Positions 14,303 to 42,063 of a stretch of DNA of 64,000 nt are shown here, piece by piece (position 1 is the first letter of the stretch; every line of letters begins with the position of its first letter). Location: the IMG/VR virus record IMGVR_UViG_3300036769_000405; one strand, written 5' to 3'. The position numbers and the translations under genes were made by a program. Below the pieces are notes generated by a model that saw nothing but the letters and a program-made list of their open reading frames with translations, was not told where the DNA came from and did no database searches. The DNA comes from an uncultured virus (IMG/VR IMGVR_UViG_3300036769_000405) (Duplodnaviria > Heunggongvirae > Uroviricota > Caudoviricetes).

Positions 14303-14854
14303 ATGAGAAAAATTAGCAACCTTAACTATTCAACAGCTTTGGATAGTTACAATGAGTATAAGGACACAAAAGACTCACTTAGCCCATCATCTGCAATTAT
14401 TGAAATATACAGTATTATCATATTGTTTTTAAATTCTATGTTTGATATCGTATACCCTAAATATTTTGAGGGTAATGGTGGTACTAATATAATCACTATG
14501 TACGAAACAATCACTAATATCATCCATGACTTCTATCTAGACGTGTCGGATTTATCTTTTGTTTATAATGCTTACAAAAAAGCTATATCGATTAAGAATC
14601 CATTGATAGCCGAAGATATACACATATCTGAAGATGTTATGTATAATGTAAAGAAAGCAGTAGATGAGTTCCGGGTAAAACATGAAATTGCTCCAGAATT
14701 AAGTAAAGAGGATCTTGATATTTGGGCAGAATATTGCTTAAAATACGATATACATACGTACAAAGAGTTACATGATGAGATTGAATCTCTCTGTAATCTC
14801 TATAGTTGTAGTAGGGAGCGTGTTACCTTATTAGTTAATTCTTTACTCATTTAG
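14303..14854 (+). CDS. HEPN-like paralogue with shared C-terminal module
   Basis: Helical pattern like its neighbours; C-terminal IWAEYCLKYDI...EIESLCNLY. Confidence 0.5.
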   Translation: MRKISNLNYSTALDSYNEYKDTKDSLSPSSAIIEIYSIIILFLNSMFDIVYPKYFEGNGGTNIITMYETITNIIHDFYLDVSDLSFVYNAYKKAISIKNPLIAEDIHISEDVMYNVKKAVDEFRVKHEIAPELSKEDLDIWAEYCLKYDIHTYKELHDEIESLCNLYSCSRERVTLLVNSLLI

Positions 14855-14865
14855 GAGGTTGCCTC

Positions 14866-15462
14866 ATGAGATATGCTGATCAATATTATGAGAATGCTTT
14901 AGAACAGTTAAAGGTGCTCGAAGCACTTCAAACCTCTACCGAGTATAAGGTAAAGGTAGGACTTATTTGGCAGATCACTGATAATCTTTTACGTAGTGCT
15001 TTTGAGTACTATCGTGAATGTGGTGAGCGTATACCGGATAATGAAAGTTTAGTTATGTTAGGTAGCAGACTAAACTTAGTTATCAATGATGAAGTTAAAC
15101 ATGTAGATCTGCATGATTTACAGTACTTAGAGAAATTCAGTTTCACTAAGTTACGTCCTATTTATCATATAAATGACGTTGTTATCTCTAAAGAAAAGTT
15201 CGAACACTGTTTTGAGATAATGATGGATGTTATGGATAGTGTAATTGGCTACCAGCAAAAAGAGTTGCGTCCATTGTATGATCCACGTATAGATAATACA
15301 TTTTATGACTATAGGATCTGGAATAAATATCGTGTAAGATATGGATTTATTACAGATGAACAGTTTGATAGAGAAATGAAACGCTTAACTGAATGCTATA
15401 AACTACGTGGACATGAGTTAGTACAGTTCATTTCTAAATACAGATTGTCATTTTTGGATTGA
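14866..15462 (+). CDS. HEPN-like paralogue with shared C-terminal module
   Basis: YYENALEQLKVL...WQITDNLLRS; C-terminal IWNKYRVRYGF...EMKRLTECY. Confidence 0.5.
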   Translation: MRYADQYYENALEQLKVLEALQTSTEYKVKVGLIWQITDNLLRSAFEYYRECGERIPDNESLVMLGSRLNLVINDEVKHVDLHDLQYLEKFSFTKLRPIYHINDVVISKEKFEHCFEIMMDVMDSVIGYQQKELRPLYDPRIDNTFYDYRIWNKYRVRYGFITDEQFDREMKRLTECYKLRGHELVQFISKYRLSFLD

Positions 15463-15472
15463 GGAGGTTACA

Positions 15473-15841
15473 ATGCCTAGATATTTTTATGATGATGCTA
15501 TGCGTCAGGTTAAATGTTTAAGCTATATAAAAGATGTGGAAGACTTACGTGACTCTCATATTATTTTGATTCATGAAGCAGTAGCTAATACTTTTAGATA
15601 CATGATTACTAAGAATATTGGTATTGATTCTTTAATACATACATCTAGTGTTTGTACTTTGGCACGACAGGCCTACAATTGTCTTGATCATTACTTTAAC
15701 TGGCCACTTAGCAAGTTACATGATTTAGATATTCAGTATATGAAAATTACTGTAGAGCATAAGTCAGGCTCTGTTCCTGAAACGAATAGTTTAGTAGGAA
15801 CATTTATTCCAATGTTGGAAAGTTATTATTTATTTGTATAA
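15473..15841 (+). CDS. HEPN-like paralogue
   Basis: FYDDAMRQVKCL...IHEAVANTFRY...LIHTSSVCTL resembles HEPN helices 1-3. Confidence 0.45.
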   Translation: MPRYFYDDAMRQVKCLSYIKDVEDLRDSHIILIHEAVANTFRYMITKNIGIDSLIHTSSVCTLARQAYNCLDHYFNWPLSKLHDLDIQYMKITVEHKSGSVPETNSLVGTFIPMLESYYLFV

Positions 15842-15861
15842 CACACTAAGGAGGCGTTCAT

Positions 15862-18800
15862 TTGCGTAAATTTATTTTGTCTTTTTTAACATTAGGTATA
15901 CTGATGTTAGTACCAAGCTTGCACGTGTACGCCTATCAGGCTGGACAAGTACAACAAGGTAGTTCTGGAGGATCAGGAAACTCTAGTAATACAGAGGACA
16001 CTGATCCTTACCAGGCATACACAACTTACACACCTAAGGTAACATTACTTAGAAACGCTAATGCTTTATGTGCCAACTCGGGTGAAGCAATCTATTATAT
16101 TCCCACGTTAGATGATTTACCATTAGATCTTGAGGCTTATGTTACTGATTGCACAGATGGGACTTATTCTCATAAGTTTGCTTATGTTTATAGCAGTTAC
16201 TTTAACTCTGACGCACAATTAGTAACAATATCTTCAGACTCTACGACTGCAGAAGCTCATACATCACAAAACATTGAAACAGCTTATATCGCAAACTCTA
16301 CGCTGAAAGATGTTGGATATGATTTGCTTTTGTTAAGTGATAGTTACTCAATGAAGACAACAAGTGGTACATCAGCTGAGATTTCTAATTTGCATGAAGC
16401 AGCTAATGATACAAACTTACAAGCTAAGTATGTTGTTATGGATTTGTACAAAGCTTTAGGTATTTACGAATATGATATACAGTTTTGTTTTACAAGAGAT
16501 CCTGATTTTGATGCCAACTCATCTCCTATATTACAGGAAATAACTGTATTAACATCACAGTCAGGAAGCAATGGTTTGAATATCAAAGAGTCCCGCACAG
16601 ACGTTGCTGTCTCAAGAACAAATTCAGAATTATACTGGATACGTTTCGATAAGGATGGTATTGCAAGAAAGCTAGAGAATAATACAGAAATAGAAGGATC
16701 ACAGATCACTGGATTAGCAACTTCTATTTCAGCAGAATCAACAATAACTTTTGCTCAGTTCTGCAATCTAGCAGTTGCTATGATGAATCTCTATGGCGAG
16801 GAAGCACTGACTGATACACAATATTCAGCATGTATTCAGAGTTATGGTACAGACATTACAGCAATTCAAACAAATAGTAAAATAGAAGAAACCTCAGCAA
16901 TTTACTTAATTGCTAAAGGTATTTTAGATGGTGATTCACTTCAGGATATTGCTTGGGATGAACCTGTACGTTTACTGAATGTATCTGGAAATACGTATAC
17001 GAACAGCAATTATATTCTTGATATTCTTGGACGTATAGCTAATCCTGATAGACGTTTAACATTGAAATCTTCAACACCAATTGATGCTACATTAGCAGCT
17101 GCTGGATACAGTGAAGCTACTGTTACTATCAATTCTATGATTTCTAATGTAATAACATTTTCTACAGATAGTTCATTCTTATATGATTATCTAATTGAAG
17201 TTGTTCCTGAGAACACTCACATATGTAGATATAACTCAGCAACCACTAGTTTGAACTCAACATCTGAGTCTCTATTAGCAACTACATCAACATCATCACC
17301 ACAAGGAACTGCTAGTAGCTCTGAATATAATGCTTTTGCAAACATGAGAGTTTTTGTTAATGGTATTGCTTATGATCCTAAGAATACTATAGATGATTGT
17401 TTGCAGAGTGGCGGTTATGTTTACTATGGAGTCATTACAGTTGATGGTAAACAGTATTATCATTTCAAGATGAAAAAGTTTTGGGAAGATGGTGCAACCG
17501 TTTACTTTGATTATCAACCAAGTAATACAGAGGAGATTGTTACAGATGCATCTCCAATTCGTTTGGAGTCTATGAGTGGTGGTGTGTATAGTTACTCATC
17601 TGGAAACTATATACGACAGAGTTTTACAGAAGCTAATTTTGTTGAATCATATATCGATGCTGAATCTTCAGTAAGTACACAACTTGCTTCTGGAAATACT
17701 ACATTACTATTCTATATGTCATCAGCAGTTAATAAGGAGATATTATCTCTTTATAACGATTCTACATTTACATGGACAAACATCTTTGATAGTAACAATT
17801 TGAGATATGGGGAGCCAGTAACTATATGCAATCGTTCAGATAATGTAACTATAATGACGGTGTTTAGTGGTACATCAGTTAATGGCGATTATGACCGTTG
17901 CGAGATAATCACTAATAATTTATCAGCTGTTCAAAACTCAAGTTTTTATACAAACTACTTAGGCTCTAATTCCGAAAAGAGGACTGCTAAAGGTTTCTAT
18001 AGAGCATCAAGTAATGGTTCATTAATGGTTGAATATGACTACCTGAAAGAACAAGGGCTAGTTTCTGGTTTCAAAGAAGTATCTGATGGTACCTATGTAA
18101 TTACTGCTGGTAAATATAAAACAAATGTAACTATTCTCACAAAGAATGATTTGATAATTGTCGGTGATACAATATACTCAAACACAGGTGGTGAAGTATT
18201 AGTACTTAAAACAAATGGTACAACATACATTAACTATCGATGTTGTTTAGGTTGGGCAGGTGACTTCGCTGTAATCCCTACAGGAGACACAATTGTAGCA
18301 ACACCAATACAATTGTTTGGTAGTACAACTTCAATAACACAGACAACGAAATCAATCTCTACATTTTACCCATCAGCAAATACAAAGTTGTTGTATAACA
18401 CTTTGGTTTATCATGAAAATGCAAGTGATGAAAAAGATTACGCTGGGTTTAGTCTAAGTGGTTCTTATGCATTAGCTCCGTACATCCTTGTGTCCACAGA
18501 TGACGATTATGATTATTTGTTTGTATGGCACAGAAATAATATCGTTAGTACAGATGGAAATACAGTATATAACATTTCTGTTGAAGATAATGATGCTGCA
18601 TTCAATAAGTTTAAAGAACTTACTGGAGTTAAGTTGAATAGTCAGAATAATTATTCGTTGGCAATGTTTCCACTGAACAAAAATGGAGTTGGTAATCCAG
18701 CTGGATTTGAGTATACAAAGCTTGAACAATCAAGTGCTCGTGGTACAAAATCAGCAACAGCTGGTTGGGTATATACACCACCGGTATTTAATGATGTACT

Positions 18801-19716
18801 GAGTGCATTAAATACATATGCATCAGTTTCTAGTGATTTAGCTATACCTATATTTGCTAGAACAGTTGGTAATGTTACACATTACTTTGATGCTAATGTA
18901 AACGTTTGTGCTGAATCTGCCGGTAATGATTATCTTCCCTTAGGAACAATGCCAAGTTATCTTACTACTGCAAATAAGGATACTTATTACAGTAAGTTGA
19001 CATCATCTGGGTCATATAGTACAACTACTGCTGCTGGGGAATCTACAAAAGCATACCCTATTTACACAGCACCTGTTGGTTTGTTTGCACAATTAAAAGG
19101 TATGGGAACAACAGCTGCTAAAGATATAGGTCAAGGTTCTATATATTTTGGTACAACTAAATGCACTTTAAGTAATGGGTCAATAACGATATCAGGTAGG
19201 GCTACAACATTTGATAGTTCATCAGAAGCTGTTTGTACATATATGAGCAATGGTTCTTCTTCAGTATATGCAGTTACTCTAGAATCAACTACACTTGGTG
19301 ATATACTTACTGCAATAGATCAAGAGTTAGAATATACACTTAACGATCCTGAAAACTTAGTAGACTGGAGTCAGTACAAGTTTGAACGCCTGATTCAAAA
19401 TCTTGATGCGTGGTCTACAGTAGTGCTCATTTTCGTGCTTAACATACTTCCACGTGTGGCTGTGCTTCTATTCTTTATTCTAATGCTTTTAAGCTTGATG
19501 AAAGACTGGAAGCCGTTTCAGATGTTTTGTCATAGGTGGTTTGATCCATTTAAATTCTTAACCTTAGGGCACATTTCAGTTGACAATGTTAACTTGAAAC
19601 GCTTGCTTATTATCTCACTTATTTGCATTAGTCTTATGATGGTTATCATGGATGGACAACTTTTTAACTTCATCATTTGGATAGCAAAGGCTCTAGTAGC
19701 CATTACTCAACGTTAG
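15862..19716 (+). CDS. Very large exported protein (signal peptide, SLH-like and beta-rich regions, C-terminal TM helices)
   Basis: Signal peptide ending VYA; ITFAQFCNL / LIAKGILDGD..WDEPV SLH-like segments; Ser/Thr-rich; 2-3 C-terminal TMs. Confidence 0.75.
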   Translation: MRKFILSFLTLGILMLVPSLHVYAYQAGQVQQGSSGGSGNSSNTEDTDPYQAYTTYTPKVTLLRNANALCANSGEAIYYIPTLDDLPLDLEAYVTDCTDGTYSHKFAYVYSSYFNSDAQLVTISSDSTTAEAHTSQNIETAYIANSTLKDVGYDLLLLSDSYSMKTTSGTSAEISNLHEAANDTNLQAKYVVMDLYKALGIYEYDIQFCFTRDPDFDANSSPILQEITVLTSQSGSNGLNIKESRTDVAVSRTNSELYWIRFDKDGIARKLENNTEIEGSQITGLATSISAESTITFAQFCNLAVAMMNLYGEEALTDTQYSACIQSYGTDITAIQTNSKIEETSAIYLIAKGILDGDSLQDIAWDEPVRLLNVSGNTYTNSNYILDILGRIANPDRRLTLKSSTPIDATLAAAGYSEATVTINSMISNVITFSTDSSFLYDYLIEVVPENTHICRYNSATTSLNSTSESLLATTSTSSPQGTASSSEYNAFANMRVFVNGIAYDPKNTIDDCLQSGGYVYYGVITVDGKQYYHFKMKKFWEDGATVYFDYQPSNTEEIVTDASPIRLESMSGGVYSYSSGNYIRQSFTEANFVESYIDAESSVSTQLASGNTTLLFYMSSAVNKEILSLYNDSTFTWTNIFDSNNLRYGEPVTICNRSDNVTIMTVFSGTSVNGDYDRCEIITNNLSAVQNSSFYTNYLGSNSEKRTAKGFYRASSNGSLMVEYDYLKEQGLVSGFKEVSDGTYVITAGKYKTNVTILTKNDLIIVGDTIYSNTGGEVLVLKTNGTTYINYRCCLGWAGDFAVIPTGDTIVATPIQLFGSTTSITQTTKSISTFYPSANTKLLYNTLVYHENASDEKDYAGFSLSGSYALAPYILVSTDDDYDYLFVWHRNNIVSTDGNTVYNISVEDNDAAFNKFKELTGVKLNSQNNYSLAMFPLNKNGVGNPAGFEYTKLEQSSARGTKSATAGWVYTPPVFNDVLSALNTYASVSSDLAIPIFARTVGNVTHYFDANVNVCAESAGNDYLPLGTMPSYLTTANKDTYYSKLTSSGSYSTTTAAGESTKAYPIYTAPVGLFAQLKGMGTTAAKDIGQGSIYFGTTKCTLSNGSITISGRATTFDSSSEAVCTYMSNGSSSVYAVTLESTTLGDILTAIDQELEYTLNDPENLVDWSQYKFERLIQNLDAWSTVVLIFVLNILPRVAVLLFFILMLLSLMKDWKPFQMFCHRWFDPFKFLTLGHISVDNVNLKRLLIISLICISLMMVIMDGQLFNFIIWIAKALVAITQR

Positions 19717-19737
19717 AAAATAAGGAGATGAATAATT

Positions 19738-21277: not shown

Positions 21278-24200
21278 ATGCTTAAAACTTTTGTAAAGAG
21301 ATGTATCGCATCTCTACTGATTGTTACAATTTGTGGTGGGATTATTTGTCCCACCACAAATATTTATGCTAATACGACAATAACCTCAAGCATGACAGCA
21401 TTTACAGAAACCGTTAGTGGTTATTATCCTACCACTACATTTAATGTTGCAGATGCTGAGTTAATTAAAATAAAATATAATAACACAACAGAATATTTTT
21501 TATGGGCTAATACTATTGCAACTACATCCATGATTGGGAATTATCAGTGGACAACAAATTCTGGATCATTGAATGGAGATGCTAACAGTTTCTCAACAGT
21601 ACTATCTAAGATTGATGACTCACTTGGAGTGGATGTTACAAGCGCTAACATCATGTCAGCTTTAAATAATTTAAGTTCTTCACAAGGAGCTTCTAATGCT
21701 GACTTGTCAAATATTAATCAGCGTATGGCAGCATTTTTATATATGCGTTTAAACCCTACATTGTTTAAAGGATCAGGTAATTCATATAAGTGGGAATCTG
21801 TAGAATCAATTGACGATTCAGATTATGCAGATATGTTAAACACAACCTTATCTTTAGGTTATAGTGAGTCTCTCAGTTATAAAATGTATAAAGCAGGTTT
21901 GTGTGCTTCAGATCAATTGCTACGTATTGATGGTTTATCTATCAATAGTAATTGGTATGGTAGTATTAACAATCTTGGAGTTGTTGCTATAGATACTATG
22001 ACTTCAACATCGAATGGTGGAGCATTTCCAACTGATATAGATGCTTCACAGGGAAATAGAGCATACAGCGTGAACAATAAAGTTTTCATAGCTAATGAAA
22101 TTGCTATATATACTTGCCTTGAAGAATACCTTGATTTTTATTTAGACTCTATGCCTCAGATTGCAAATTCAGCAGGGTGGGAAGAGAACTCTACATACAA
22201 AGCTCAATTAACTTACATTAAGACTTTTGCAGAAGCATTTGGAGATATGATTCCATTTATTGCAAAACTCTATACAAAGGTTAATTCCAATGCTAATGGA
22301 ATGTCTCTGCAAGATATGGTAAATAAGTCTGGTGCTTCAAGTAGTTCTCTGCAGGATGCATTTGATGTTGATATTTCCACATATACAGCACATACAGATA
22401 ATTCATCACCAGTCACTCAGTTCTATACTATTAATGCTTCTACAGGTATTATAAGTTATGATCGTGATGCTATTCTTGCTGATATAGATGTTGATACTAC
22501 TCAAGATGGTATCTTACAAGATTCTCAAGAGTCTCAGAGATATGATACAGCAACATCTGGAGATGAAGATGCTTATCAGATTGTTAATACTTTTTTAGGT
22601 GAGCAGGCCGATACTGCACAAAAGATTCTTAATGACTTCGCTGTTATTAATGATGAAACAGCACAGGTTAATGATCAGAATAGAGCTATAAACGATATTA
22701 TGGATATCTTTGCTACAGGTGGTGAAGGTAATATAATATTAAAAGTTTTTGAAGAATATTATGGAAATACCTGGACAACATCATTTGAACAAGCAATGCG
22801 CTTGAATAATACAGCTTCTGTAATGCAGTTGTTAAATGACCAAGATAAACTGAAACAGTTACAAGCCATCGTTGACGGTATGTCTAGTGATCTTACAGAG
22901 TACCTTGCTAATAACACAACAAGTATAGCTCAATTAAACACTGTGTTGGAGGGTGTGACAATATTAGATCATGGTGTTTCTGCAGAGGGTCAATCAACAT
23001 CCTATACTTCAGTAACTATAAATGATTATATTATTCAAGGCATGGCATTGAGTGCAACATTTATTCCAATGCGTACAAATCTTTACGCTCCGGAAACAAT
23101 AGCAACATTTAAGGATGATGACTCAGCTGACAGTTTTTACAACTTCTACATAGATTATGGATTTATGCGGAAAGCTCTGCTGATAGATACATCGGCAACC
23201 GCTGCTACGGATTATTATAATTCAAATGGACTATCTACTGGAAGTTTAAAAGTTTGTACGCTGAGAGATTTAATTGAATCAGGTGATAATGATGTTGTTC
23301 TATACATTGATTCTGAATTTTACAATGCAGAGGATGCTATTAATCAGGGCACAACGCTATTGTCAGCTGCAAGAGATAACCGTGTTAACTTGTGCCTAAG
23401 TTTGCAAGAGTTTACACCCATCTGGAAGAATGCTAGCTTTTGGACAAATAATTCATCAGTAGTTGTTAGTACTGTTAGTGACACAACATTGAAGAACTCT
23501 TTATTGAGTCTAATGACAGTAGATGCTGAAGATGATAAAAAATATAAGTTTGATATAGACGAATTACGTACAACCTATCGTAAATCATTACTTGATACTT
23601 ACAAATTTGACATAGATAAGTTTGATACAGAAGCTGATATGCAAGATTATGCAGATAATCTTGAGTACGCAAATTCAATGTCTACACAAGTTGCTGTAGA
23701 TAATCAAATGTTAAAAACAAATGGTTATACAACTTACAATAGTTCTGTTAGAGCAATACTAGCTGAGGTTGATGATTCAGATTATGTGAATCTTGCATCT
23801 GATAGTGATAGTACTTTCGAAGGTATCTTTCATATTGATTGGACTGATGATGACTATAATACTGATGATAATCCGGATACCATTGTTATGACCTCTGCTC
23901 AAATAAATCAGTACCTTAGTGGTGAAATGACTTATTCTGAAACAGTTAGAGATGAAGCAAACGGAACAGAAACTATTACAAAGTACACAGCTGATACTGG
24001 ATATACTCCACTTATGTCTTTAGCTTGGGTATCGTGTCTTTACAGAAATGCTAACACATATACATTAGCCAATACAGTCGAAAGTAATAATCCAGTGTTT
24101 ATGGCGTCAGATGATTTATGTGGAATTTCAGGTGCCAATCAGTGGTATCGCAATTCTCTATTAAATTATGCATTGCTGAAAAATCTTTCAGGAAATGCAC

Positions 24201-26692
24201 AGGTTGATATTTCCTATGTTACCGATTTAGATTGTCCTGTATACATGGATGTATTTGGTAATATATTAACTGAAAGCGGAACAGTCGTTATTCCTGCGGC
24301 TTGCAATGCAACCTTGCACGTAGGATCGTTTAAGGAATACGACTATGCAGTAGGGCTTTACTCATGTTATGGAAAAGAATATACAGTACCGAGTGACCTT
24401 AATGGCGCTCTGTCCGTACTCTATCCATACTTCACTGTTGATGAAAATGCAGGTGAATATGTTATCAATGGTATTACCATGAATGTAGGAAGCACTTCAG
24501 TTCGATTTGATAAGATTGATACTTACAGTGACGATACTAAGGAAGCTGTCGAGAATGCATACAAAGCAGCAATCTCCTCAGGATCTAGTACACGATTGAA
24601 CTGGATTGCTATAGTCAAGATTATCAATGAAGTTATGCGTGGAGCACCACTTGAGTCTATTGATAAAGAGGCTGAGGGGCTTTATGTTAACCAAACGAAG
24701 TCTGGACTGATGGCGGCTGCAAAATATGAATCATTACTTGATTCATTAAGTGCAAACGTCTCTAACACTTTACTATGCATACCTGATTTTTCTAGGATGG
24801 ATAACTTAGAAGTTTGGGTGGCGCTTTTAATAAAACTGATGATGGTTGCAACAGCGGCAGTCATTATCATAGCTATCTATCGAGATGGTGTATCAGGGCA
24901 GTTAGGTTTGCGTACAGTATTCACATCCCTAATGGCTATTGCTTTGACAGTTTCATGTATAGTAGTTGTACCTGCTGTATTTCAGTTAACTTATTATTCA
25001 GCAAATAAATTTTTGTTGGGTGATGAGGCAATGCGAATACTAATGGTTAATGAAGAGAAACGTCAAGGTGGTATGGAGATTGGTATTACTCAAACTAATA
25101 CTGTCGAGTCTAACGGTGAGTTCGCATTACAGTTAGACTGGATTAAGGTTCCATGGTACAATGAATTGGAAACAATGCTTTATGATTCTACTTTGGATAA
25201 TTTGCAAGAGACAAAGTTGGAAGCATATAAGACAAGTGCAATCTATAACAATTCTGACGTAACAATGTATAACGATGGTGCTTACATTACAACTGATGAT
25301 TTGTTTGATTCAGTGTCTATTGACTTTACATTTAATTCAACTTCCAGCCAGAAAGGTCTTTACTTGTATGCAAATGATTCACAGCAGACAGCTTCGTTTT
25401 ACAGTCCATACTATGCATTCCTTAAGATACTTGTTGCAAATGTCAATGAGTATAATCGCTGGTTAAATAATGGTGGTAATAGTTATTCTAGTGAGGACGA
25501 CGCTCTTGCTGCTGAAGAACTTGGTACAAGTGGTATCCTTGGTAGTTATAATTATACTGTCAAGTATATGTCTTCAAATAGACCGAAGACAGTTGGTTTA
25601 TGTGAGGCATATTTTGAGTCAGACGATTTCATGCTCTATGATGAGGATATCATGCGTCTTTGTCAGATTTATGGCTCTATTGAGAGTGATACAAATCCAG
25701 CTATGGATGCTATTGATTCTCATGAGTCTGGATTCAACAGAGCATTGCTTTTCGATGACAGTGACCTCACACAGTTTAGAGTATCTTACTGGTATAATAA
25801 TGATTTAGTTAGTTGTAGCCAAGATTATTACAATACAATTGGAAATACAGACTCTACTACACAATCTGAAAAACAAGCAGCTTACTTAGCAAGTTATCTT
25901 GATGACTTTTATACACGTGTATCAGCAATGGATAGTTATGCTAGGGATTTCATAGCTAATAATAAAGATATGTTAGGTAAAGTGTCAGATGAGACTTTTC
26001 TTAAAGTTATGGCGCTTAACATGGCTATCAAGTACAATCAGCTTTTTGGTGTCCCCTCAGCAAATTCATTAGAGATATACAATATGAATTCCGAAGACTT
26101 GGTAAGACTTTGCATTGTAAAATCAGATGAAGCAGTTATGGCAACGTCTATGTCATTTCCACGTTTTGTGTATACATTTGGTGGTGAAGCTGGTGTATAT
26201 ATGGCAGCTGTATTGTCAATCATTTTATGGCTTGGATCATTTATTAAACCTCTATGCACAATAATCGTTTTTATATCAGTCTTTTTGTCAATATTTATAT
26301 TTCGTGTTGTATTACGAAAACCTAGTGCTAATTTGTGGGGCTATCTTATAACTGTTACTCTTCTTTGTGCAACTAACTTACTTCATGCTCTAATATTAAA
26401 AATTGGGGTGAGCCTACCTAATATAGGGTTGTCTACACTTGGGTGTTTAATATTCATGATTATAGGACAAGTTGCATACTTGCTTGTCTTGGCTTATGTG
26501 ACAGGCATCTCTCTGAAAGACTGGTCTAATCTTGGATTAGTTGAATATCAGAAAGAAGCTAATAACATCAAGTCTAAGTTCTCTAAGGACGATTCAGGAG
26601 CTTTATTGAGTGGCAAACTGAAGCACCATGATAACAATTGGGACTACTATAATGATCTTGTTGATCAGCACAGGAAACGTAATAAGTCTTAA
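21278..26692 (+). CDS. Giant polytopic membrane protein (1804 aa), VirB6-like position in a putative T4SS
   Basis: Signal peptide, large acidic exported domains, 2 TMs near aa 1180-1240 and about 4 TMs at the C-terminus. The VirB6 role is inferred from topology and context only. Confidence 0.6.
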   Translation: MLKTFVKRCIASLLIVTICGGIICPTTNIYANTTITSSMTAFTETVSGYYPTTTFNVADAELIKIKYNNTTEYFLWANTIATTSMIGNYQWTTNSGSLNGDANSFSTVLSKIDDSLGVDVTSANIMSALNNLSSSQGASNADLSNINQRMAAFLYMRLNPTLFKGSGNSYKWESVESIDDSDYADMLNTTLSLGYSESLSYKMYKAGLCASDQLLRIDGLSINSNWYGSINNLGVVAIDTMTSTSNGGAFPTDIDASQGNRAYSVNNKVFIANEIAIYTCLEEYLDFYLDSMPQIANSAGWEENSTYKAQLTYIKTFAEAFGDMIPFIAKLYTKVNSNANGMSLQDMVNKSGASSSSLQDAFDVDISTYTAHTDNSSPVTQFYTINASTGIISYDRDAILADIDVDTTQDGILQDSQESQRYDTATSGDEDAYQIVNTFLGEQADTAQKILNDFAVINDETAQVNDQNRAINDIMDIFATGGEGNIILKVFEEYYGNTWTTSFEQAMRLNNTASVMQLLNDQDKLKQLQAIVDGMSSDLTEYLANNTTSIAQLNTVLEGVTILDHGVSAEGQSTSYTSVTINDYIIQGMALSATFIPMRTNLYAPETIATFKDDDSADSFYNFYIDYGFMRKALLIDTSATAATDYYNSNGLSTGSLKVCTLRDLIESGDNDVVLYIDSEFYNAEDAINQGTTLLSAARDNRVNLCLSLQEFTPIWKNASFWTNNSSVVVSTVSDTTLKNSLLSLMTVDAEDDKKYKFDIDELRTTYRKSLLDTYKFDIDKFDTEADMQDYADNLEYANSMSTQVAVDNQMLKTNGYTTYNSSVRAILAEVDDSDYVNLASDSDSTFEGIFHIDWTDDDYNTDDNPDTIVMTSAQINQYLSGEMTYSETVRDEANGTETITKYTADTGYTPLMSLAWVSCLYRNANTYTLANTVESNNPVFMASDDLCGISGANQWYRNSLLNYALLKNLSGNAQVDISYVTDLDCPVYMDVFGNILTESGTVVIPAACNATLHVGSFKEYDYAVGLYSCYGKEYTVPSDLNGALSVLYPYFTVDENAGEYVINGITMNVGSTSVRFDKIDTYSDDTKEAVENAYKAAISSGSSTRLNWIAIVKIINEVMRGAPLESIDKEAEGLYVNQTKSGLMAAAKYESLLDSLSANVSNTLLCIPDFSRMDNLEVWVALLIKLMMVATAAVIIIAIYRDGVSGQLGLRTVFTSLMAIALTVSCIVVVPAVFQLTYYSANKFLLGDEAMRILMVNEEKRQGGMEIGITQTNTVESNGEFALQLDWIKVPWYNELETMLYDSTLDNLQETKLEAYKTSAIYNNSDVTMYNDGAYITTDDLFDSVSIDFTFNSTSSQKGLYLYANDSQQTASFYSPYYAFLKILVANVNEYNRWLNNGGNSYSSEDDALAAEELGTSGILGSYNYTVKYMSSNRPKTVGLCEAYFESDDFMLYDEDIMRLCQIYGSIESDTNPAMDAIDSHESGFNRALLFDDSDLTQFRVSYWYNNDLVSCSQDYYNTIGNTDSTTQSEKQAAYLASYLDDFYTRVSAMDSYARDFIANNKDMLGKVSDETFLKVMALNMAIKYNQLFGVPSANSLEIYNMNSEDLVRLCIVKSDEAVMATSMSFPRFVYTFGGEAGVYMAAVLSIILWLGSFIKPLCTIIVFISVFLSIFIFRVVLRKPSANLWGYLITVTLLCATNLLHALILKIGVSLPNIGLSTLGCLIFMIIGQVAYLLVLAYVTGISLKDWSNLGLVEYQKEANNIKSKFSKDDSGALLSGKLKHHDNNWDYYNDLVDQHRKRNKS

Positions 26693-31821: not shown

Positions 31822-33879
31822 ATGAAAGGTAAGAAACATGGAGAACAGAAAGAAACAGGCTATCTACGTAGTAACAAATCCAAAGAATCAGAAACAGCAA
31901 AAGGAAGGAAACGTAGTCTTACCGAAGACAGAACCCACGAAGTCGAAGAACCTACGTTAGCCTCTAAGCTTAATGAAAGTAGTAAGCAGAAGAGAAAACG
32001 TGAACGTTTTGTAACTGCAAGAATGTGGATATCTACATTGATATCCACATTCTTTACTGATCGTGGAACTATTCCAGATAACATTGGAAACAATGTTCTG
32101 ATTACTAACAATTTGTATATTACAAAGAATCATCTCACTGCTATTATACAAGTTATTGAGATGTCTGAGATAACACCTGTTTCTTGGACGTCTGATCTTA
32201 TTAAGTATGTAAAAGATCAGACACAAGGTGTAATTGTTGATATAACTTTCAAAGGACAAAAATATTATCCAGATATAACACCATCTGCCATGAACTCTAA
32301 AGAAAAGACTTGGCATCAAATGTTAGACAACCCACTAATGCCTGAAAGTTATGTTAGACGTGCAGCAAGATGTTTATATACTTTAGATGTAGCTAGAAGT
32401 GGAACAAGAATGGATAAGCAACGTATTTATATTAAGATACGTGCTAAAGATGGCGCTATGCTAAAACGTGGATTGCAAGCAACATCTACTTATTTGAGTT
32501 CTATTCAAGCAAAGTATAAACGTATTCAATCAAACATTGAAGAGCATTTACAGTATATGACATTGATGTGTGATACGAAACCACAACACTTGAAAGATGT
32601 AGCACCTGTTATTTTTTCAACACAAACCTTTGCAGAATCAATGCCCTCAATACAAGGTGCTAATGATCAAGAAGGTGTTTTAATGGGTTATGATATCATC
32701 TCAGGATATCCATACTTCATTAATTTTATGTCAACAGCAGCTGCTAAGAACATTATGATAGAAGCTCTATCTGGTTGGGGTAAGACATTCATGGCGTCCT
32801 ATTGGTTATATCCGTTTTATGCAAATGGGTTTAATCTTGCTTTAATGGATATTAAAGGTAATGAATTGAATGCAATTACAGAAGCTTTACATGGTATTTG
32901 TTTATCAATGCGTCCTACGTCAACACACTATATCAACACTTATTGCTGGCGTGTTGATGAGGTTTTTGATGGGGATTTCACAGCTTATGCAAATGAACGA
33001 TTCAGAATGTCTAAAGAACGTATGCTTTGCATAATCGATTTCGAAGAGAAACTTGAGTCACAAGCTGAAGCACTGCTCGAGGAATTCTTGCAATACGTTT
33101 ATAAAAGCATTGGAGCGAGTGCTACGAATGTTAATACTTGGTCAAGAACTGAACAGTTGAATCCATATATAATATTTGATATGTTTGAACGTTACATCTC
33201 AAATGAGATTAAGTTAAAATATAAGGATGTTGTTTCACAAATGATTGAACGTTTAAGAATATACATGTCACGTTATGGAAGTAAATCACATATTTATCGT
33301 GAAGCTTACAGTTATATGGATATACTTGAAACACGTTGTTTAACATTTGATTTTGGCATGCTTGAAGCTTCTAGTAATAATGACCGTGTAATGTTTCATT
33401 TACATGTTATGGATATGGTTGCTATCAATGATGCTTATGTATCTTACAAGAAAAAGAAGCATGAGTGGACTGTTAAGTTATTGGAAGAGTCTCAGATTGT
33501 AGATGATTGGCTTACAAAAGTATACACACGTGAGATTACATTACGTCGTGCACAAAATCAGGTAACAGTGTTGTTAGGGAACTCTATAGCTGCTTTGGCT
33601 GAGAATCCATTAAGCAGACCAATAATTGAGAATTTAAATATTCTTGTTCTTGGTTCTCTAAACCTGAGCTCACGGAAATATTTGAAAGATGAATTTGGAC
33701 TAAATAATTATGAACTCGAAGCTTTAGAGGAAATCCAAACTAATCCTGATATGCAGCGTAGATTTTTACTTGTCAATCGAATGGAACCTAACGCTACAAC
33801 TGCTATACTTGAAGCTAACGTACCTGAGAAAGTTAGCCAGAGTCCACTATTTAAAGTTGTTGATACAGAAGATAATTAA
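31822..33879 (+). CDS. VirB4/TraE-like conjugative transfer ATPase
   Basis: GVLMGYD...PYFINF, NIMIEALSGWGKT (Walker A), ALMDIKGNE, LTFDFG, KLLEESQ (Walker B variant), LRRAQNQ, IIENLNILVLG: overall VirB4 C-terminal layout. Confidence 0.75.
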   Translation: MKGKKHGEQKETGYLRSNKSKESETAKGRKRSLTEDRTHEVEEPTLASKLNESSKQKRKRERFVTARMWISTLISTFFTDRGTIPDNIGNNVLITNNLYITKNHLTAIIQVIEMSEITPVSWTSDLIKYVKDQTQGVIVDITFKGQKYYPDITPSAMNSKEKTWHQMLDNPLMPESYVRRAARCLYTLDVARSGTRMDKQRIYIKIRAKDGAMLKRGLQATSTYLSSIQAKYKRIQSNIEEHLQYMTLMCDTKPQHLKDVAPVIFSTQTFAESMPSIQGANDQEGVLMGYDIISGYPYFINFMSTAAAKNIMIEALSGWGKTFMASYWLYPFYANGFNLALMDIKGNELNAITEALHGICLSMRPTSTHYINTYCWRVDEVFDGDFTAYANERFRMSKERMLCIIDFEEKLESQAEALLEEFLQYVYKSIGASATNVNTWSRTEQLNPYIIFDMFERYISNEIKLKYKDVVSQMIERLRIYMSRYGSKSHIYREAYSYMDILETRCLTFDFGMLEASSNNDRVMFHLHVMDMVAINDAYVSYKKKKHEWTVKLLEESQIVDDWLTKVYTREITLRRAQNQVTVLLGNSIAALAENPLSRPIIENLNILVLGSLNLSSRKYLKDEFGLNNYELEALEEIQTNPDMQRRFLLVNRMEPNATTAILEANVPEKVSQSPLFKVVDTEDN

Positions 33880-35935: not shown

Positions 35936-36469
35936 ATGAAAGATGAAACTAAGGTAAAGGTTCTTATGTTTGGTATTATTCTTTGTTTTTTAACACTTGC
36001 AGGTCTCATTATCTATGCTGTAAATTATAAACATTCGAACAAGGAATCAACTATAAGTGATACGCTTGTTACTAATGTTAACAATACAGAAGTTTCAAGA
36101 GAACCTGAAACTTCGAGTGAACAAGATACTGAAACAAGCTTCGTTGCTATAGATGATGCTACAGAACCTGAAACAGAAAATGAGATTTATTCTTATGAAT
36201 CCTCTAGGGAATTATCTGATGAAGTAAATCTTAGGATTAAAGATTATATTGAATTTCTTGCTAAGAAATATGATACAACAGTTACATTGAATAATGTGCG
36301 TACTTATGATGAAGGATTTGTTGATTGTGAATTTATCGTAAGTAATTATGGTTATGCTACTATTTCCTATGATCCTGATTATGACCAATGGAGCGGGCGC
36401 TTATTCAGCGACGACGAAGTGCTTGATATTTGGTATGAGGGTGAAACAAGTTTGGAGGAATTAAACTGA
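35936..36469 (+). CDS. Single-pass acidic membrane protein
   Basis: N-terminal TM, Glu/Thr-rich linker, small acidic domain. Confidence 0.7.
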   Translation: MKDETKVKVLMFGIILCFLTLAGLIIYAVNYKHSNKESTISDTLVTNVNNTEVSREPETSSEQDTETSFVAIDDATEPETENEIYSYESSRELSDEVNLRIKDYIEFLAKKYDTTVTLNNVRTYDEGFVDCEFIVSNYGYATISYDPDYDQWSGRLFSDDEVLDIWYEGETSLEELN

Positions 36470-37050
36470 TGAATAATAAAAGTAAATCTAGAAAGACTTT
36501 AGGAACAACTAAAGTAGTCATTATACTCTGGGTATGTATTGTAGTTGTAATATTCTTACTTGTAGGACTTATTTTAAAGTTTAATAAAAACAGTTTTTAT
36601 GATTCCACGGAGACCACAGAAACTGTTGGCGCTCAGGAAATCTATGATACTGAAGTTCAGTATGTAGATGTAGAAGAAATAAGTCCTGAAGAGTCTGTAT
36701 ATATGTCATTGAGAACAACAACAGATGTCAATGGTTGGTTTGAACAATACAACGATGATTCTGTAACAGTCGATGCTGAATATGAACTCCGTACAGATAC
36801 TTTTGTTTCAGATTTCGCATCACTAGAATTAGTTGCTGACGGTGATTACATTTTCGCCTCTACTGTTAATTATGCTATGGACCTGGCAGATGAACTAGGT
36901 ATTAGTAAAGATACTTTAGCTTTAGCTACATACAGTAGTGGTAATGACGAATTAACGGAGTTTATTGAAGTTTACATTGGTGATGATACATACGCTTTTT
37001 ATTCTAAAGGCAATGGTGATTCTGTAACAATTTCATATGTAAAGGAATAG
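36469..37050 (+). CDS. Single-pass acidic membrane protein
   Basis: N-terminal TM, acidic domain; coupled to the upstream stop. Confidence 0.7.
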   Translation: MNNKSKSRKTLGTTKVVIILWVCIVVVIFLLVGLILKFNKNSFYDSTETTETVGAQEIYDTEVQYVDVEEISPEESVYMSLRTTTDVNGWFEQYNDDSVTVDAEYELRTDTFVSDFASLELVADGDYIFASTVNYAMDLADELGISKDTLALATYSSGNDELTEFIEVYIGDDTYAFYSKGNGDSVTISYVKE

Positions 37051-37053
37051 CCT

Positions 37054-37776
37054 ATGAACCCTAAAAAGACTGTTTCTATTTGTGTTGCTATTGTTATGTG
37101 TTTTGTAGTTCTTATCTGTGGTTTGAACTTCAGCAATAATGATGAGGATTATAATACAATAATTAGTAGTTACAACAAAACAACACAAGATTACAGTAGA
37201 ACATCAGTTTCTACTGTAGTTAACCAGATTTCAAATAATATTGAAAGTGAACCTAACATTCCTGGAGTTAGTACTACCTATACGTCTGTAACAATTGATA
37301 CATCTTCGTGGCTTGCTATTTGTGATAGTGTTCATAAACAATGGGGTGCTGCTGGACTAGGTTACAAGTTGGGTGGTTACCGTACTTTAAATTTTGGTAA
37401 TGGTGATGTAACTATTCGTTTAGACTGCTCAGGTTATGTTAGCTATTGTTTGTATGTAGCTGGTTATACTACATCAACAACAGCATTTACTACTTCATCA
37501 TTAGCTACTAATTACACTTCCTACGGTTTAGTAAAAGTAGCAAATCCTGGTGAAATAACTTCTTACACACAGTTACAACCAGGAGATATACTTGATATAA
37601 AAGGTAATCATATGCAGATCTATGCAGGCCCTGCAGATGACTGGTATAACTGGGGTGGTGAAAGTAGTACAAGTGATAAATATACTAATGTTACTGATAT
37701 TGCTTCTGTAGATTCACAGATTCACAGTTCTCATAGCTTTGATTTAACACAATGCTACGTTTTTAGATTACCGTAA
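37054..37776 (+). CDS. Membrane-anchored NlpC/P60 cysteine peptidase
   Basis: LDCSGYVSY catalytic Cys, LQPGDIL, HMQIYAG catalytic His. Confidence 0.85.
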   Translation: MNPKKTVSICVAIVMCFVVLICGLNFSNNDEDYNTIISSYNKTTQDYSRTSVSTVVNQISNNIESEPNIPGVSTTYTSVTIDTSSWLAICDSVHKQWGAAGLGYKLGGYRTLNFGNGDVTIRLDCSGYVSYCLYVAGYTTSTTAFTTSSLATNYTSYGLVKVANPGEITSYTQLQPGDILDIKGNHMQIYAGPADDWYNWGGESSTSDKYTNVTDIASVDSQIHSSHSFDLTQCYVFRLP

Positions 37777-37792
37777 TTCAGGAGATTTTAAA

Positions 37793-38524
37793 ATGAAAAA
37801 GCAAACAATTCAAATGTTAAGTTTAATACTTATTTTACTTCTGTGTATAATATTCACAGTTATTGGTGTATTAATTTACAGTACGATTTCTGATAAGGAA
37901 GAGTTCATAAGTACAGTCACACAACCACAAACAACGACCGTTAACTCAGAAGTTGCTAACTATTCTAGCAATTCTGAAACATATGATTCTTATCCTGCTG
38001 TTGATAGTACAACAGAAACTCAGGAAGCTTACTGGTTAGGTGAAGTACAGGAAGTTTTTGTAACCCCTACAGATGATTTAACCGATGAACAGGACGATTT
38101 TTATACAGAGCAGGGAAACTTACTTCTTTTGGATGGAAGTCTCAACGATATGTTAACTTACGTTAGTGAAGATTCTGGAGATAGAAAAGTTTACTTGTCG
38201 AGTTTTAACTCTTATAACAATGGATCTACAGTTCAGTATAATTATAAGGTTGCAAATACCGATGCTGGTTTCTATGTTATAACTGAAACAGGTCAAGATC
38301 CTATGGTAAGTGAATACGGTAATATTTATGGTGATGATTATCCAATCATTATCTTTGATAATTACTTAGGAGGTTGCCCAGGAGATTACTCAATTGTGTA
38401 TAAAGCTATTTACAATAAGGGTGTTACATCCGGTTGGTATGAAACAGATTACACCGAGGGTGATTCTGTTATTAAACTTTATAACATTGATCCTTACACT
38501 CTACTTTACACTATAAATCTTTAG
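37793..38524 (+). CDS. Single-pass acidic membrane protein
   Basis: N-terminal TM, Thr-rich linker, acidic Tyr-rich domain. Confidence 0.7.
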   Translation: MKKQTIQMLSLILILLLCIIFTVIGVLIYSTISDKEEFISTVTQPQTTTVNSEVANYSSNSETYDSYPAVDSTTETQEAYWLGEVQEVFVTPTDDLTDEQDDFYTEQGNLLLLDGSLNDMLTYVSEDSGDRKVYLSSFNSYNNGSTVQYNYKVANTDAGFYVITETGQDPMVSEYGNIYGDDYPIIIFDNYLGGCPGDYSIVYKAIYNKGVTSGWYETDYTEGDSVIKLYNIDPYTLLYTINL

Positions 38525-38537
38525 GAGGTGATTATCT

Positions 38538-38750
38538 ATGCCTGAAGATGAAGAAAAGAAAGACAATAACAACCCCAACCATACGTGGAAAGAATTATTA
38601 CCTATGTTTGTAGTCATGATTCTTATTGTGATTGGTGTTGTTAAATTCCTTATACCCGCACTTATACCTGCTGATCATTCACCAAGTACTGTAATTGAAC
38701 AATCAAAAGATGGGAGTTATATTGATGAATTCTTTGACAGGTTTAGATAA
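38538..38750 (+). CDS. Small single-TM protein
   Basis: AGGAGGTG RBS. Confidence 0.6.
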   Translation: MPEDEEKKDNNNPNHTWKELLPMFVVMILIVIGVVKFLIPALIPADHSPSTVIEQSKDGSYIDEFFDRFR

Positions 38751-39747
38751 GAAACATTTGCTTATCATTTGTTTCTGTACACTATTAACAATTTGTTCTA
38801 TTTGTTTCTGTGTAGCTATTGTTATTGCGATTAACAATAGAAATGCTCAAGAAGATACTGTTGTCATACCTAGTACATGGGATCCAAATTATCAAGAAAG
38901 TTTGAGTGACTTTGAAGCACAAGCAAAACTTGATAATACAGATTGGGATATTCTTGATTTAGAAGATGAGGAATTCCTTACAGTATCTATTAGTGAAACA
39001 ACAGTTGGTTCATCATTCAGTAATACATCTAGTGTTAAAGTTAATAGTAGAACTTTGGATGATGAATCTATTATCATGTTATCTGAGAATGATGCTTGGA
39101 GTTATATTTCTAACGAATTGTTCACGGAATACCCTAATGGTTCATTCAATGATAATAAGTCTATTCTTGAGAAAATTCAGCAGGCAAACACAGAAACAAT
39201 TGTAATAAGATGTTGGTATTGGGAGGATCCTTCAGACGATACAAACTTCAATAAAATAACAGTTTTGAAAACATTTGCTGTAAATAGCTCAATAGCTCAA
39301 TTATTTGAACATGCTTTCAATGACATTTATAATGACCCTAGTCAACCTGTTCTTAATCTAGCCGATACTGGAATGGGAACATGGGTTTTACGTGGGAAAA
39401 ATCACAACAATTCTGCCAGTCTATCTGCACATTCACTTGGTTGTTGCATAGACATAAACCCTAGTACAGGCAGTTTCAAAGTTAATGGAACTTGGTATGG
39501 TAATGCTTACGGGCATCAAACTATGTCAAAGGAAGTTTGGGAACAGTTACCAGAATGCCATAATAAGTATCATGTACTTTATGATGGTTGCCCAATCGTG
39601 GAGATTTTTAAATCTTATGGTTTTGTTTGGGGTGGAGATTGGTCATCAACTAAAGACTGTATGCACTTATCTTTTATAGGTGAAGGGTTAAATTGCCGTG
39701 AAAATGGGCAATCAAATTATTTGAGTAGGAGATTAATTTATGAGTAA
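38695..39747 (+). CDS. Membrane-anchored M15-family Zn peptidoglycan peptidase
   Basis: SAHSLGCCIDIN (SxH..D), GFVWGGDW, DCMH; likely start 38725. Confidence 0.85.
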   Translation: MNNQKMGVILMNSLTGLDKKHLLIICFCTLLTICSICFCVAIVIAINNRNAQEDTVVIPSTWDPNYQESLSDFEAQAKLDNTDWDILDLEDEEFLTVSISETTVGSSFSNTSSVKVNSRTLDDESIIMLSENDAWSYISNELFTEYPNGSFNDNKSILEKIQQANTETIVIRCWYWEDPSDDTNFNKITVLKTFAVNSSIAQLFEHAFNDIYNDPSQPVLNLADTGMGTWVLRGKNHNNSASLSAHSLGCCIDINPSTGSFKVNGTWYGNAYGHQTMSKEVWEQLPECHNKYHVLYDGCPIVEIFKSYGFVWGGDWSSTKDCMHLSFIGEGLNCRENGQSNYLSRRLIYE

Positions 39748-40806
39748 GAAATACGAACTTCTCGGATTTGTTTATAATAACGTAACTGATAGTTACCTTG
39801 AACCATCCGGTGCAATGGTGGCCTTTTTAATCCTATGTCACCAAAAATTCCTGAAACAAAGTGCTTTGATATGAAAGAGTTTATTAGTGTTGTAGGTTCA
39901 AAAGAAGTTGCTGACTTACGTATTAAAGACGGTAGATTACAATATCGAGTTGCTGAAGCTGGAAATCAAACAATAAATCATCGTAAGGGTGTAAAAGTCT
40001 ATGCTGATTTTTGCTCCGTTACCGGTGTTGTTAATGGTGTTATTGGTAGTGCTGGAACTGTTGCTATTGCTGCTGTTGCTGGTGTAGGTGCGGCAGCCGC
40101 TGCAGGAGCAGTTGTTGGAGTGGCTGGCGGTGTCTTTATACAGAGACAAATGATTAAAGGTATTGTTGGCTTATTTAATCGTGATAAACTTTATGAGTTT
40201 TGTAATGTTAGATTTATAAAAGAACACCTTAATAAAGCCGATAATAACTCTAACACAATTTCTGTAAATATTATTGATGCTGCAGCTAAAAATAATAAAT
40301 CTGGTATCACTGTAGTATTTTATGGTAAAGATGTCATGGCTTATGGCAACTACTTAAAAACTGTTTATCCTGGCGTTGATAAAAGAATCAAAGTAGCTGC
40401 TACGAATGCTTTAACTTTGGTAGTCCCTATTGATGAATTAACGTCCAAAAGATTTGCAGGAGATTTCAAATTACTATATAATACCCAGTTAATGCACGAT
40501 ACGTTGGATGCCCCTAGAATTGCTAAAGCAGCTAAGATGGATACATCTACAATATTACAATCTGCTAAAGAATTAGATGAATTGACTAATAAGAACTTAA
40601 GTTCTGTAGAGGTATCTACATCTACTGGTGTACCTGCTCCAGCTAGTTCTGTAGTACCTATCAACTCTAATGAAATTTTCAAACAGTACATGGAGAAATA
40701 CCATATTTCTGAAAATGATATGCCTGCAGAGAAGACACGCCTTATGTCTGTGTTTCACTCTCAGACAGAAGATGAACTTGCTTCTCAGCTTTCACTTATG
40801 TTATAA
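39740..40806 (+). CDS. Gly/Ala-zipper protein, paralogue of 40849..42063, split by a -1 frameshift at T5 (39824-39828)
   Basis: RBS+ATG 39740 gives MSKKYELLGFVYNNVTDSYLEPSGA, matching paralogue IIGFTFSSVTDSFRDPKGA; the rest of the homology is in ORF 39835..40806. Confidence 0.7.
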
Positions 40807-40848
40807 CATTCTTCACTTAAAAATATAACATTCGTGAGGTTAATATTC

Positions 40849-42063
40849 ATGAAAAATAAATCTAAAAATAGTATTATAGGTTTCACATTCAGTTCTGTTA
40901 CAGATAGTTTCAGAGACCCTAAGGGTGCTTTAATTTTACATACTGAACCCGGTAAACTCAAAGTGGTTCATTGTAGTATGAAAACTCTTTATGAGAAAGT
41001 ACAACAGGGTCAGATAGCAGATGCAAAATTAAAAGATGGTAAACTTATGTACACCGTCGTTTCTAAAAATAAAGCTGCTACTGATACTAAGGCTTTTGCT
41101 GCAGGGTCCGTTGCTACAGCTGGTGCTGGTGCTATTGCAGTTAATTCTTTTGGTGCTGGAACTGCTGTAGCTACGACTGCTACTGAAGCAGCTGCAATTT
41201 CTACAGCTATTACTGCTGATGCAGCTGCTGGTGCTGCTGTAGTTGGTACTGCAACGGCTGCTGAAGTAGCAACAGGTGCTGCTGTCGAAGTTGAAGTTCT
41301 TGCTGCTAGCACTGCAATAGCTACAACTGCTACTGAGGTAGGTGCTAGTGCTGTTGCATTGTCTGGAGCAGCTGTTGGGGCTGCAGTAGCAGGAGGTGTT
41401 GTTTTAGGTGCAGGTTTACTGTATGGTGGATTTCGTCTTGTAAGTGGTGTAATTAATCAGGACACATTATTTGATAATGCTAATGTGAGGTTCATTGATA
41501 ACCACTTTACTAAAGCAACTTTAAATGATGATGTTATTGCAGTTTCTATCTGTGATTTACAGAGAAAGAAAGATAAGCTTGGTGTTACACTCATCTGTAC
41601 AGGAAAAAGCCTTGGTGCCTTTATAACTAACATAGTAAATAAGTATCCATCTTTATCAGGGAAAATTAAAGGTTTAACATCTGATTATGTTGTACTCACA
41701 ATACCTATGAGTGTATTATCAAAGGGTGATTTTGGTGAAGGCTTTAAATTGTTATATAATACTCAGGTATTGCATGATGCTAAATCTTTGGAAAAACTTG
41801 AAAAAGTTTTAAAGAAAGATTCAATGGAATTATCATCACTTGCGCACACCCTTGATGATATCACTGAGAAAAACCTGAAATCTTTGGGAACAGTTGAGAA
41901 TACTGAACAGTCAGTTGATAGTTCAAACTTGATAAAGCAGTATTTTGAGAAATACAATATTCCTGAAGAATCTCAAACTGCAGAACTTAATCGTCTTAAA
42001 ACGGTATTTCATGTCAACAGTGATGCTGAATTAGCACCTCAGTTGAAACTTATGATGGATTAA
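40849..42063 (+). CDS. Gly/Ala-zipper protein with expanded Ala/Thr/Val tract and shared C-terminal module
   Basis: Shares KDG.L.Y.V, NVRFI..H..KA, FKLLYNTQ..HD, LD..T.KNL with the upstream paralogue; GAGGT RBS before ATG 40849. Confidence 0.8.
   Translation: MKNKSKNSIIGFTFSSVTDSFRDPKGALILHTEPGKLKVVHCSMKTLYEKVQQGQIADAKLKDGKLMYTVVSKNKAATDTKAFAAGSVATAGAGAIAVNSFGAGTAVATTATEAAAISTAITADAAAGAAVVGTATAAEVATGAAVEVEVLAASTAIATTATEVGASAVALSGAAVGAAVAGGVVLGAGLLYGGFRLVSGVINQDTLFDNANVRFIDNHFTKATLNDDVIAVSICDLQRKKDKLGVTLICTGKSLGAFITNIVNKYPSLSGKIKGLTSDYVVLTIPMSVLSKGDFGEGFKLLYNTQVLHDAKSLEKLEKVLKKDSMELSSLAHTLDDITEKNLKSLGTVENTEQSVDSSNLIKQYFEKYNIPEESQTAELNRLKTVFHVNSDAELAPQLKLMMD

Follow-up and report, generated by a model that had tools for sequence, protein, structure and literature searches.

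A rare C-terminal module common to small helical and glycine-rich proteins of an uncultured viral element: a candidate docking domain

The IMG/VR record IMGVR_UViG_3300036769_000405 belongs to an uncultured virus assigned to the Caudoviricetes. A stretch of 64,000 nucleotides of this large, sparsely annotated gut element, which may be a plasmid or a phage, was analyzed and is referred to here as the window. Four of its predicted proteins, a pair of small helical proteins and a pair of Ala/Gly-rich membrane-type proteins, end in the same module of about 46 residues. Sequence comparisons that include relatives from outside the window make it very probable that the tails of both protein kinds represent one homologous module. 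It may serve as a shared C-terminal docking domain that binds a common protein partner, a reading with about an even chance of being right; we infer the binding as well as the partner's membership in the neighboring machinery. The domain is new as a family and follows a known principle, the placement of one C-terminal unit on unrelated proteins. No published description of such a domain was found in the literature.

The original prediction had read the module as an export or targeting tag and had located the four motifs correctly. They start at positions 14720, 15316, 40675 and 41929, each about 40 residues ahead of the stop codon. All four genes lie on the plus strand. H14303 (14303..14854) encodes a small helical protein of 183 amino acids (aa) with a hydrophobic stretch at residues 25-51, as judged by hydropathy. 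Its module (14711..14851) covers residues 137-183 and ends 0 residues from the C-terminus; it scored 21.5 bits (E 3.8e-6) against a profile made of outside sequences only, which also yielded the scores of the other three copies. H14866 (14866..15462) encodes a small helical, weakly HEPN-like protein of 198 aa, and its module (15307..15459, residues 148-198) obtained 15.3 bits (E 3.3e-4). No relative of H14866 except itself was found among 5.8 billion clusters. G39835 (39835..40806) encodes an Ala/Gly-rich membrane-type protein of 323 aa, the Gly-type. Hydropathy shows an uncharged hydrophobic stretch at about residues 64-103; the protein further comprises a globular domain (about 150 aa) and a linker. 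The module (40666..40803, residues 278-323) reached 35.6 bits (E 1.5e-10). Its paralogue G40834 (40834..42063, 409 aa) has a longer Ala/Gly/Thr-rich region, an uncharged hydrophobic stretch at about residues 169-207 and a module (41920..42060, residues 363-409) with 33.6 bits (E 6.1e-10). The two Gly-type proteins share 36% identity over their C-terminal 214 residues (BLASTP 1e-42) and were therefore counted as one observation. H14303 and H14866 showed no detectable relation outside the motif (BLASTP E 0.34).

Within the window, the full pattern proposed originally matched at four places in the six reading frames, exactly the four carriers. A relaxed 11-residue core matched at eight places, the four carriers and four places in non-coding minus-strand frames. 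Cross-family BLASTP among the window proteins did not align the C-termini. A hidden Markov model of the Gly-type family, run against 447 six-frame open reading frames (ORFs), placed H14303 at E 0.31 and H14866 at E 2.2. Cross-family alignment of the window sequences alone with hhalign resulted in P 0.0013 and a probability of 18%. From the window alone, the link between the two families is not significant, and chance is then a fair reading of these sequences.

Sequences from outside the window provide the connection. The Gly-type protein G40834 has two database homologues with the tail kept, P0001 and P0002. Five tails were combined into a profile, with which 1,835,955,588 representative proteins were screened at a threshold of E≤0.001. 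This search retrieved 13 proteins, namely five inputs or input fragments, five new carriers with the module as a single stretch at the C-terminus, and three repeat proteins. The new carriers P0007 and P0009 have Gly-type bodies, in which the whole unit of N-domain, hydrophobic stretch and globular domain is tandemly duplicated; a single module stands at the very end. P0010, P0012 and P0014 (168-188 aa) have other bodies. The repeat proteins P0008, P0011 and P0013 were rejected as carriers, as they matched only part of the profile, many times over. Two of them, P0011 and P0013, are long proteins of tandem units of about 26-30 residues, in which the first helix plus turn looks similar to helices 1 and 2 of the module.

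Profiles restricted to one protein kind recognized the other. A profile of Gly-type tails only scored P0012 at 37.8 bits (E 1e-4 at library size), P0010 at 28.2 bits and P0014 at 26.5 bits. Conversely, a profile of small-protein tails only scored the Gly-type tails at 19.7-31.2 bits, and the window's two small-protein tails alone were sufficient to score P0014 at 27.4 bits and P0010 at 25.2 bits. The enlarged small-protein and Gly-type sets were aligned by hhalign with a probability of 97.4% and P 1e-11. Using a profile of the three outside small proteins, the four window proteins occupied ranks 1 to 4 among the 447 ORFs, with the next ORF at E 0.16. Among 200 column-shuffled outside-only profiles, none reached 15.3 bits (best scores: mean 6.7, maximum 14.8).

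A resemblance by chance or composition, with no homologous unit common to the small and the Gly-rich proteins, would agree with the insignificant window-only tests and with a pattern that was picked by a reader who had already viewed the sequences; it is largely excluded, and has only the slightest likelihood, in view of the significant bridging matches across the library, the shuffled controls, the same register of every match at the C-terminus and the confident fold prediction from the mixed alignment.

The consensus of the ten distinct tails contains an invariant Tyr, Glu and Leu, together with a further Tyr, an Ile and an Arg that are conserved almost without exception. All members have a hydrophobic C-terminal end. 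As had been claimed, the module is always C-terminal: each of 11 proteins carries one copy, which ends 0-1 residue from the C-terminus. The claim of differing bodies holds as well, with at least two unrelated kinds, a small helical or HEPN-type and an Ala/Gly-rich membrane-type. In the Gly-rich pair, a Ser/Thr/Pro/Val-rich stretch precedes the module and corresponds to the proposed flexible linker. The bodies of the small proteins cannot be aligned with each other, yet their modules share 17-38% identity. Because the module is conserved while these bodies are not alignable, selection appears to act on the module. Nine of the ten modules are net acidic (-2 to -8). The exception is the module of H14866 (net charge +3), which has diverged most and is alone in being basic.

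AlphaFold2, supplied with the ten-sequence alignment, predicted a three-helix mini-domain with helices at residues 2-11, 16-29 and 35-45 (predicted local distance difference test score, pLDDT, 94.4; predicted template modelling score, pTM, 0.70). For the module region of H14866, helices at residues 149-159, 164-178 and 182-192 after a coil at 127-148 were predicted at low confidence (pLDDT 50); this coil, too, agrees with the linker claim. The predicted fold is a generic three-helix one. A known widespread domain, which would have spoken against a dedicated tag, was not encountered: searches of Pfam, NCBIfam, PHROG, PADLOC and PDB gave no family match. One of the ten modules matched Ish1 (Pfam) at E 0.0029, below the cut-off. 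A PDB sequence search with the module profile gave chance short matches only, and Foldseek against the PDB found no match of the module at E≤0.001. In a wide structural search, the best Z was 5.2, which lies under the tool's noise mark for helical models. Two groups of structures recurred there: ANTAR chains, representing five of the top 15 rows (Z 3.7-4.7, root-mean-square deviation 1.9-2.6 over 44-45 residues), and three-helix units of the peptidoglycan-binding type (six rows, Z 3.1-4.6).

The favored function is that of a docking domain. The module is interpreted as a protein-recognition handle because it is a folded, acidic, linker-tethered and strictly terminal unit, because it is the sole conserved part of fast-diverging small proteins, and because membrane-type proteins of the same element also bear it. 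In this picture, a three-helix bundle that folds autonomously and is mostly acidic would sit behind a flexible linker at the extreme C-terminus of two unrelated protein kinds, presumably small cytoplasmic proteins of the helical or HEPN type and Ala/Gly-rich membrane-type proteins. Through it, carriers of both kinds would meet a single partner that the large element itself encodes, most plausibly part of the neighboring envelope or ATPase gene block. For the small proteins, this would imply a role as recruited accessory or adaptor subunits, or as clients. A precedent for a HEPN protein as secretion adaptor is VBP of the Agrobacterium VirB/D4 system: this small HEPN-fold protein of the cytoplasm recruits substrates to VirD4, connecting them with the secretion ATPase or coupling protein (PMC3953389). 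By analogy, an adaptor rather than a cargo role is plausible for the small proteins. VBP differs in that HEPN itself is the C-terminal dimerisation domain, and the abstract mentions no additional three-helix tail (PMC3953389).

Several points weigh against this interpretation. The common partner is so far hypothetical. The structural matches are with generic three-helix units only, so the fold is uninformative on function. The family has only ten distinct members, and the statistics are partly circular: a mixed profile had served to retrieve the members from outside, which leaves the homology tests to some extent dependent on the window sequences. Against the Gly-only profile, the tails of H14303 and H14866 score just 5.8 and 3.3 bits, and their link to the Gly-type runs only via intermediates. 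Depending on the topology of the Gly-rich proteins, the compartment of the module might differ between the carrier types.

A narrower version of the docking reading is the export or translocation tag of the original prediction, by which a T4SS-like (type IV secretion system) or Tad-like apparatus would recognize cargo and either secrete it or deliver it to a recipient. It is neither supported nor excluded by the evidence and is considered rather unlikely. The strict position at a free C-terminus in all 11 proteins and the combination of variable bodies with a conserved module would suit a tag. In addition, the carrier genes flank a block at 15.8-39.7 kb that encodes very large signal-peptide/membrane proteins, two cell-wall hydrolases and a P-loop ATPase. 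The block has the appearance of an envelope-spanning apparatus, but no observation connects the module with it. The number of carriers, just four in 64 kb and very few in databases, argues against an export tag, as do the hydrophobic stretches of at least 40 residues in two carriers, which are unusual for secreted cargo. No coupling protein was recognized in the window by the Pfam scan, and the VirB4 identity of the ATPase was not confirmed.

Known C-terminal recognition units differ from the module. The C-terminal domain (CTD) of the type IX secretion system (T9SS) of Bacteroidota is a larger beta-sandwich, which is cleaved off after outer-membrane transport. The module, in contrast, is a 46-residue three-helix bundle by prediction, its carriers have no signal peptide, the element has 33% G+C and Gram-positive-type neighbors, and no sequence match was found. 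The likeness lies in a conserved folded unit at the extreme C-terminus of unrelated proteins. T4SS signals are disordered charged tails or the larger BID, a four-helix unit that spans some 100 residues or more and has a positively charged tail. The folded module has half the size of BID, three helices and an acidic charge in nine of ten copies, and thus departs from T4SS signals in size, fold and charge. The T9SS CTD is reported to be a conserved folded recognition domain on otherwise unrelated cargo of one machine (PMC5121618). BID and other C-terminal T4SS signals are presented as a helical unit common to diverse effectors and needed for delivery (PMC8714903). The use of C-terminal domains or signals by T4SS effectors and T9SS cargo favors an export role (PMC8714903, PMC5121618, PMC3915618).

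The 685-aa P-loop ATPase (31822..33879, plus strand) has a Walker A motif at residue 315 and belongs to no assigned family. Its designation as VirB4 found no support, as no VirB4, TrbE or CagE model of Pfam or NCBIfam and no PDB sequence matched at E≤1. As relatives, only hypothetical proteins encoded on two 215-kb Bacillus plasmids were found (22% identity); in the one plasmid whose annotation was inspected, the relative is located near an FtsK/SpoIIIE gene. A search for the module in the 215-kb Bacillus plasmid that encodes the ATPase relative, run without a positive control, found none. No relatives of the ATPase were found in viral contigs. The Tad-like block (54628..58974, plus strand) comprises a CpaB-like SAF protein and a TadA/CpaF-like ATPase. 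The similarities to CpaB and to TadA/CpaF predicted for a Tad locus are visible and weak, none lying above curated cut-offs: pilus_cpaB scored 23 bits (cut-off 71), the TadA-family model 18.9 bits (cut-off 373), and CpaF chains gave E 0.054. The Tad-like ATPase and a 660-aa protein are immediately followed by three adjoining paralogues of 203, 225 and 180 aa at 61620-63572 (BLASTP 1e-6, 3e-5), which could be pilin-like subunits. Within the block at 15.8-39.7 kb, two very large proteins at 15862-19716 (1284 aa) and 21278-26692 (1804 aa) have hydrophobic segments, signal-like at the N-terminus and multi-span at the C-terminus, and matched no family.

A more far-reaching form of the export idea regards the module as the recognition domain of an undescribed delivery route of a giant gut element in a low-G+C host. 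The module would mark HEPN-type effectors and membrane-inserting proteins for delivery to other cells by an apparatus made up of the large envelope proteins and the orphan P-loop ATPase, and would be a Gram-positive-type counterpart of the T9SS CTD or BID. This scenario is unlikely.

Somewhat less credit still is given to a self-association, regulatory or stability module, which might pair with itself, mask or control its own protein, tether the small proteins to the membrane protein by homotypic contact or serve as a protease-adaptor handle. Homotypic adaptor domains likewise occur on different partners, and here the same domain is present on membrane-type and soluble proteins of one element; the hydrophobic C-terminal end of all members also fits. 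Against it, the predicted monomer already forms a complete three-helix fold. Co-folding of a Gly-type module with a small-protein module gave a score of 0.00, which is uninformative either way.

A nucleic-acid-binding mini-domain of the ANTAR or HeH/Ish1 kind, acting as an RNA handle for HEPN-type proteins, is very unlikely. HEPN domains are often RNases, and the idea can draw on the recurrent ANTAR rows of the structural search and the single Ish1 match. ANTAR units, known from AmiR, NasR, EutV and Rv1626, resemble the module as three-helix units of similar size that are often C-terminal, with Z values remaining within the noise level for helical models. The module is acidic rather than basic in nine of ten copies, which argues against nucleic-acid binding. 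None of the ten modules matched the Pfam models of ANTAR, SAP or HeH at E≤10, and the domain also occurs on membrane-type proteins.

The HEPN character of the carrier bodies stays a tentative assignment. For H14303, the designation HEPN-like is not shown; no alignment to P0010 and H13811 was obtained. For H14866, it is weakly suggested in the N-terminal part (hhalign P 0.002, probability 13.6%, 117 columns). Both proteins match 0 Pfam families at E≤10 and do not reach the cut-off of HEPN (PF05168), and H14303 also has no PHROG, NCBIfam or PADLOC family. P0010 scored 21.4 bits against Pfam HEPN (PF05168), with a cut-off of 22. P0012 matched HEPN_Swt1 at E 0.009 and gave a hint of Cas13a-HEPN in PADLOC (E 0.005), where no other carrier matched. 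H13811 (13811..14290, plus strand, 159 aa), which is HEPN-like and lacks the module, aligned with the N-terminal part of P0010 in BLASTP (27% over 136 aa, E 0.001 in an eight-sequence set). A HEPN-like nature is plausible for the gene cluster on these sequence similarities and unproven for H14303 and H14866. The Gly-type bodies had no family match in Pfam, PHROGs, NCBIfam or PADLOC, and ESM Atlas gave no usable match for the Gly-type domain.

The family is very rare, with ten distinct tails in two large protein collections. The many hits expected originally were not obtained; only five new carriers occurred among 1.84 billion representatives. A second protein search with a ten-member profile, including longer lengths, yielded no new member, and the window holds no fifth copy of the module. 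The Gly-family alignment had no relatives in viral, genome or metagenome collections, nor had P0009 in viral contigs. In tblastn searches, G39835 and P0010 had no match in 72,556 plasmid or 50,697 phage records. A degenerate DNA pattern for the module core, which by our own reading of the sequences fits five of the ten known members, matched 12 times in metagenome contigs, seven times in genome contigs and 0 times in viral contigs. These matches were rejected as modules. The best two (17.7 and 15.1 bits), already selected for fitting the pattern, covered only profile positions 8-30 and 7-30 of 47 and left the third helix unmatched.

Carriers have been seen only on large contigs, the longest listed being 212,388 (P0009, P0010), 184,686, 103,576, 49,819, 37,350 and 30,272 bases. 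The window's own proteins belong to the 184,686-base contig according to database metadata; P0012 is located on the 103,576-base contig and P0007 on that of 37,350 bases. For the Gly-type P0009 and the HEPN-type P0010 alike, the metadata give 212,388 bases as the longest contig, with a common source. As both are probably on one contig, a second large element probably bears both carrier types, as far as metadata can tell.

Around the carriers, further small helical proteins are encoded on the plus strand. A neighbor of 122 aa (15473..15841) and a protein of 187 aa just after the Gly-rich pair (42116..42679) lack the module. Together with H13811, H14303 and H14866, they make up five small helical proteins (159, 183, 198, 122 and 187 aa), four of them consecutive at 13811-15841 and one past the Gly-type pair. 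They have diverged beyond detection by BLASTP, and two of the five carry the module.

The gene G39835 as called begins at an internal Met. The first 29 or so codons of the Gly-type family, which match the N-termini of G40834 and P0001, are out of frame with the rest of G39835 (39802-40806). This N-terminal segment is encoded by a short ORF in another frame (39740..39874, plus strand), and the overlap of the two frames falls around a T5 run at 39824-39828. G39835 could be a frameshifted gene or a case of ribosomal slippage. An independent RNA-library contig of 151 bases covers 39699-39849 without difference. The frame break is therefore not an error of this assembly alone. In total, five RNA-library runs contain small shares (0.05-0.14) of the stretch, and their contigs of 151-167 bases are identical to the window, which is no proof of transcription.

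The window has a G+C content of 32-37%, and all real-looking ORFs of at least 100 aa are on the plus strand. Fewer than one fifth of its 65 ORFs reached a Pfam cut-off. The matches include a chemotaxis-receptor signalling domain, thymidylate synthase, DUF1232, M15 peptidase, RNase H, DnaB, NADAR, a primase zinc finger and a SAF domain. No virion genes were found among the PHROGs matches of the window proteins, which added only replication, nucleotide and lysin-type functions. A complete gene for a methyl-accepting chemotaxis protein is present at 969-2675 (MCPsignal 1.9e-27); it also matches the phage family phrog_8572 of unknown function (1.9e-34). The DUF1232 protein of 185 aa (9112-9669) and a 531-aa protein (10114-11709) have a region of about 140 residues in common (28% identity, E 6e-8).

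The rarity of the family limits its general importance, unless many more carriers turn up on complete elements. If a docking or delivery handle is the true function, the module would be a new member of the small group of C-terminal units by which unrelated proteins are marked for the same apparatus. A short portable sequence would then identify the clients of an otherwise unreadable machine, and the module would be the bait for seeking its receptor.

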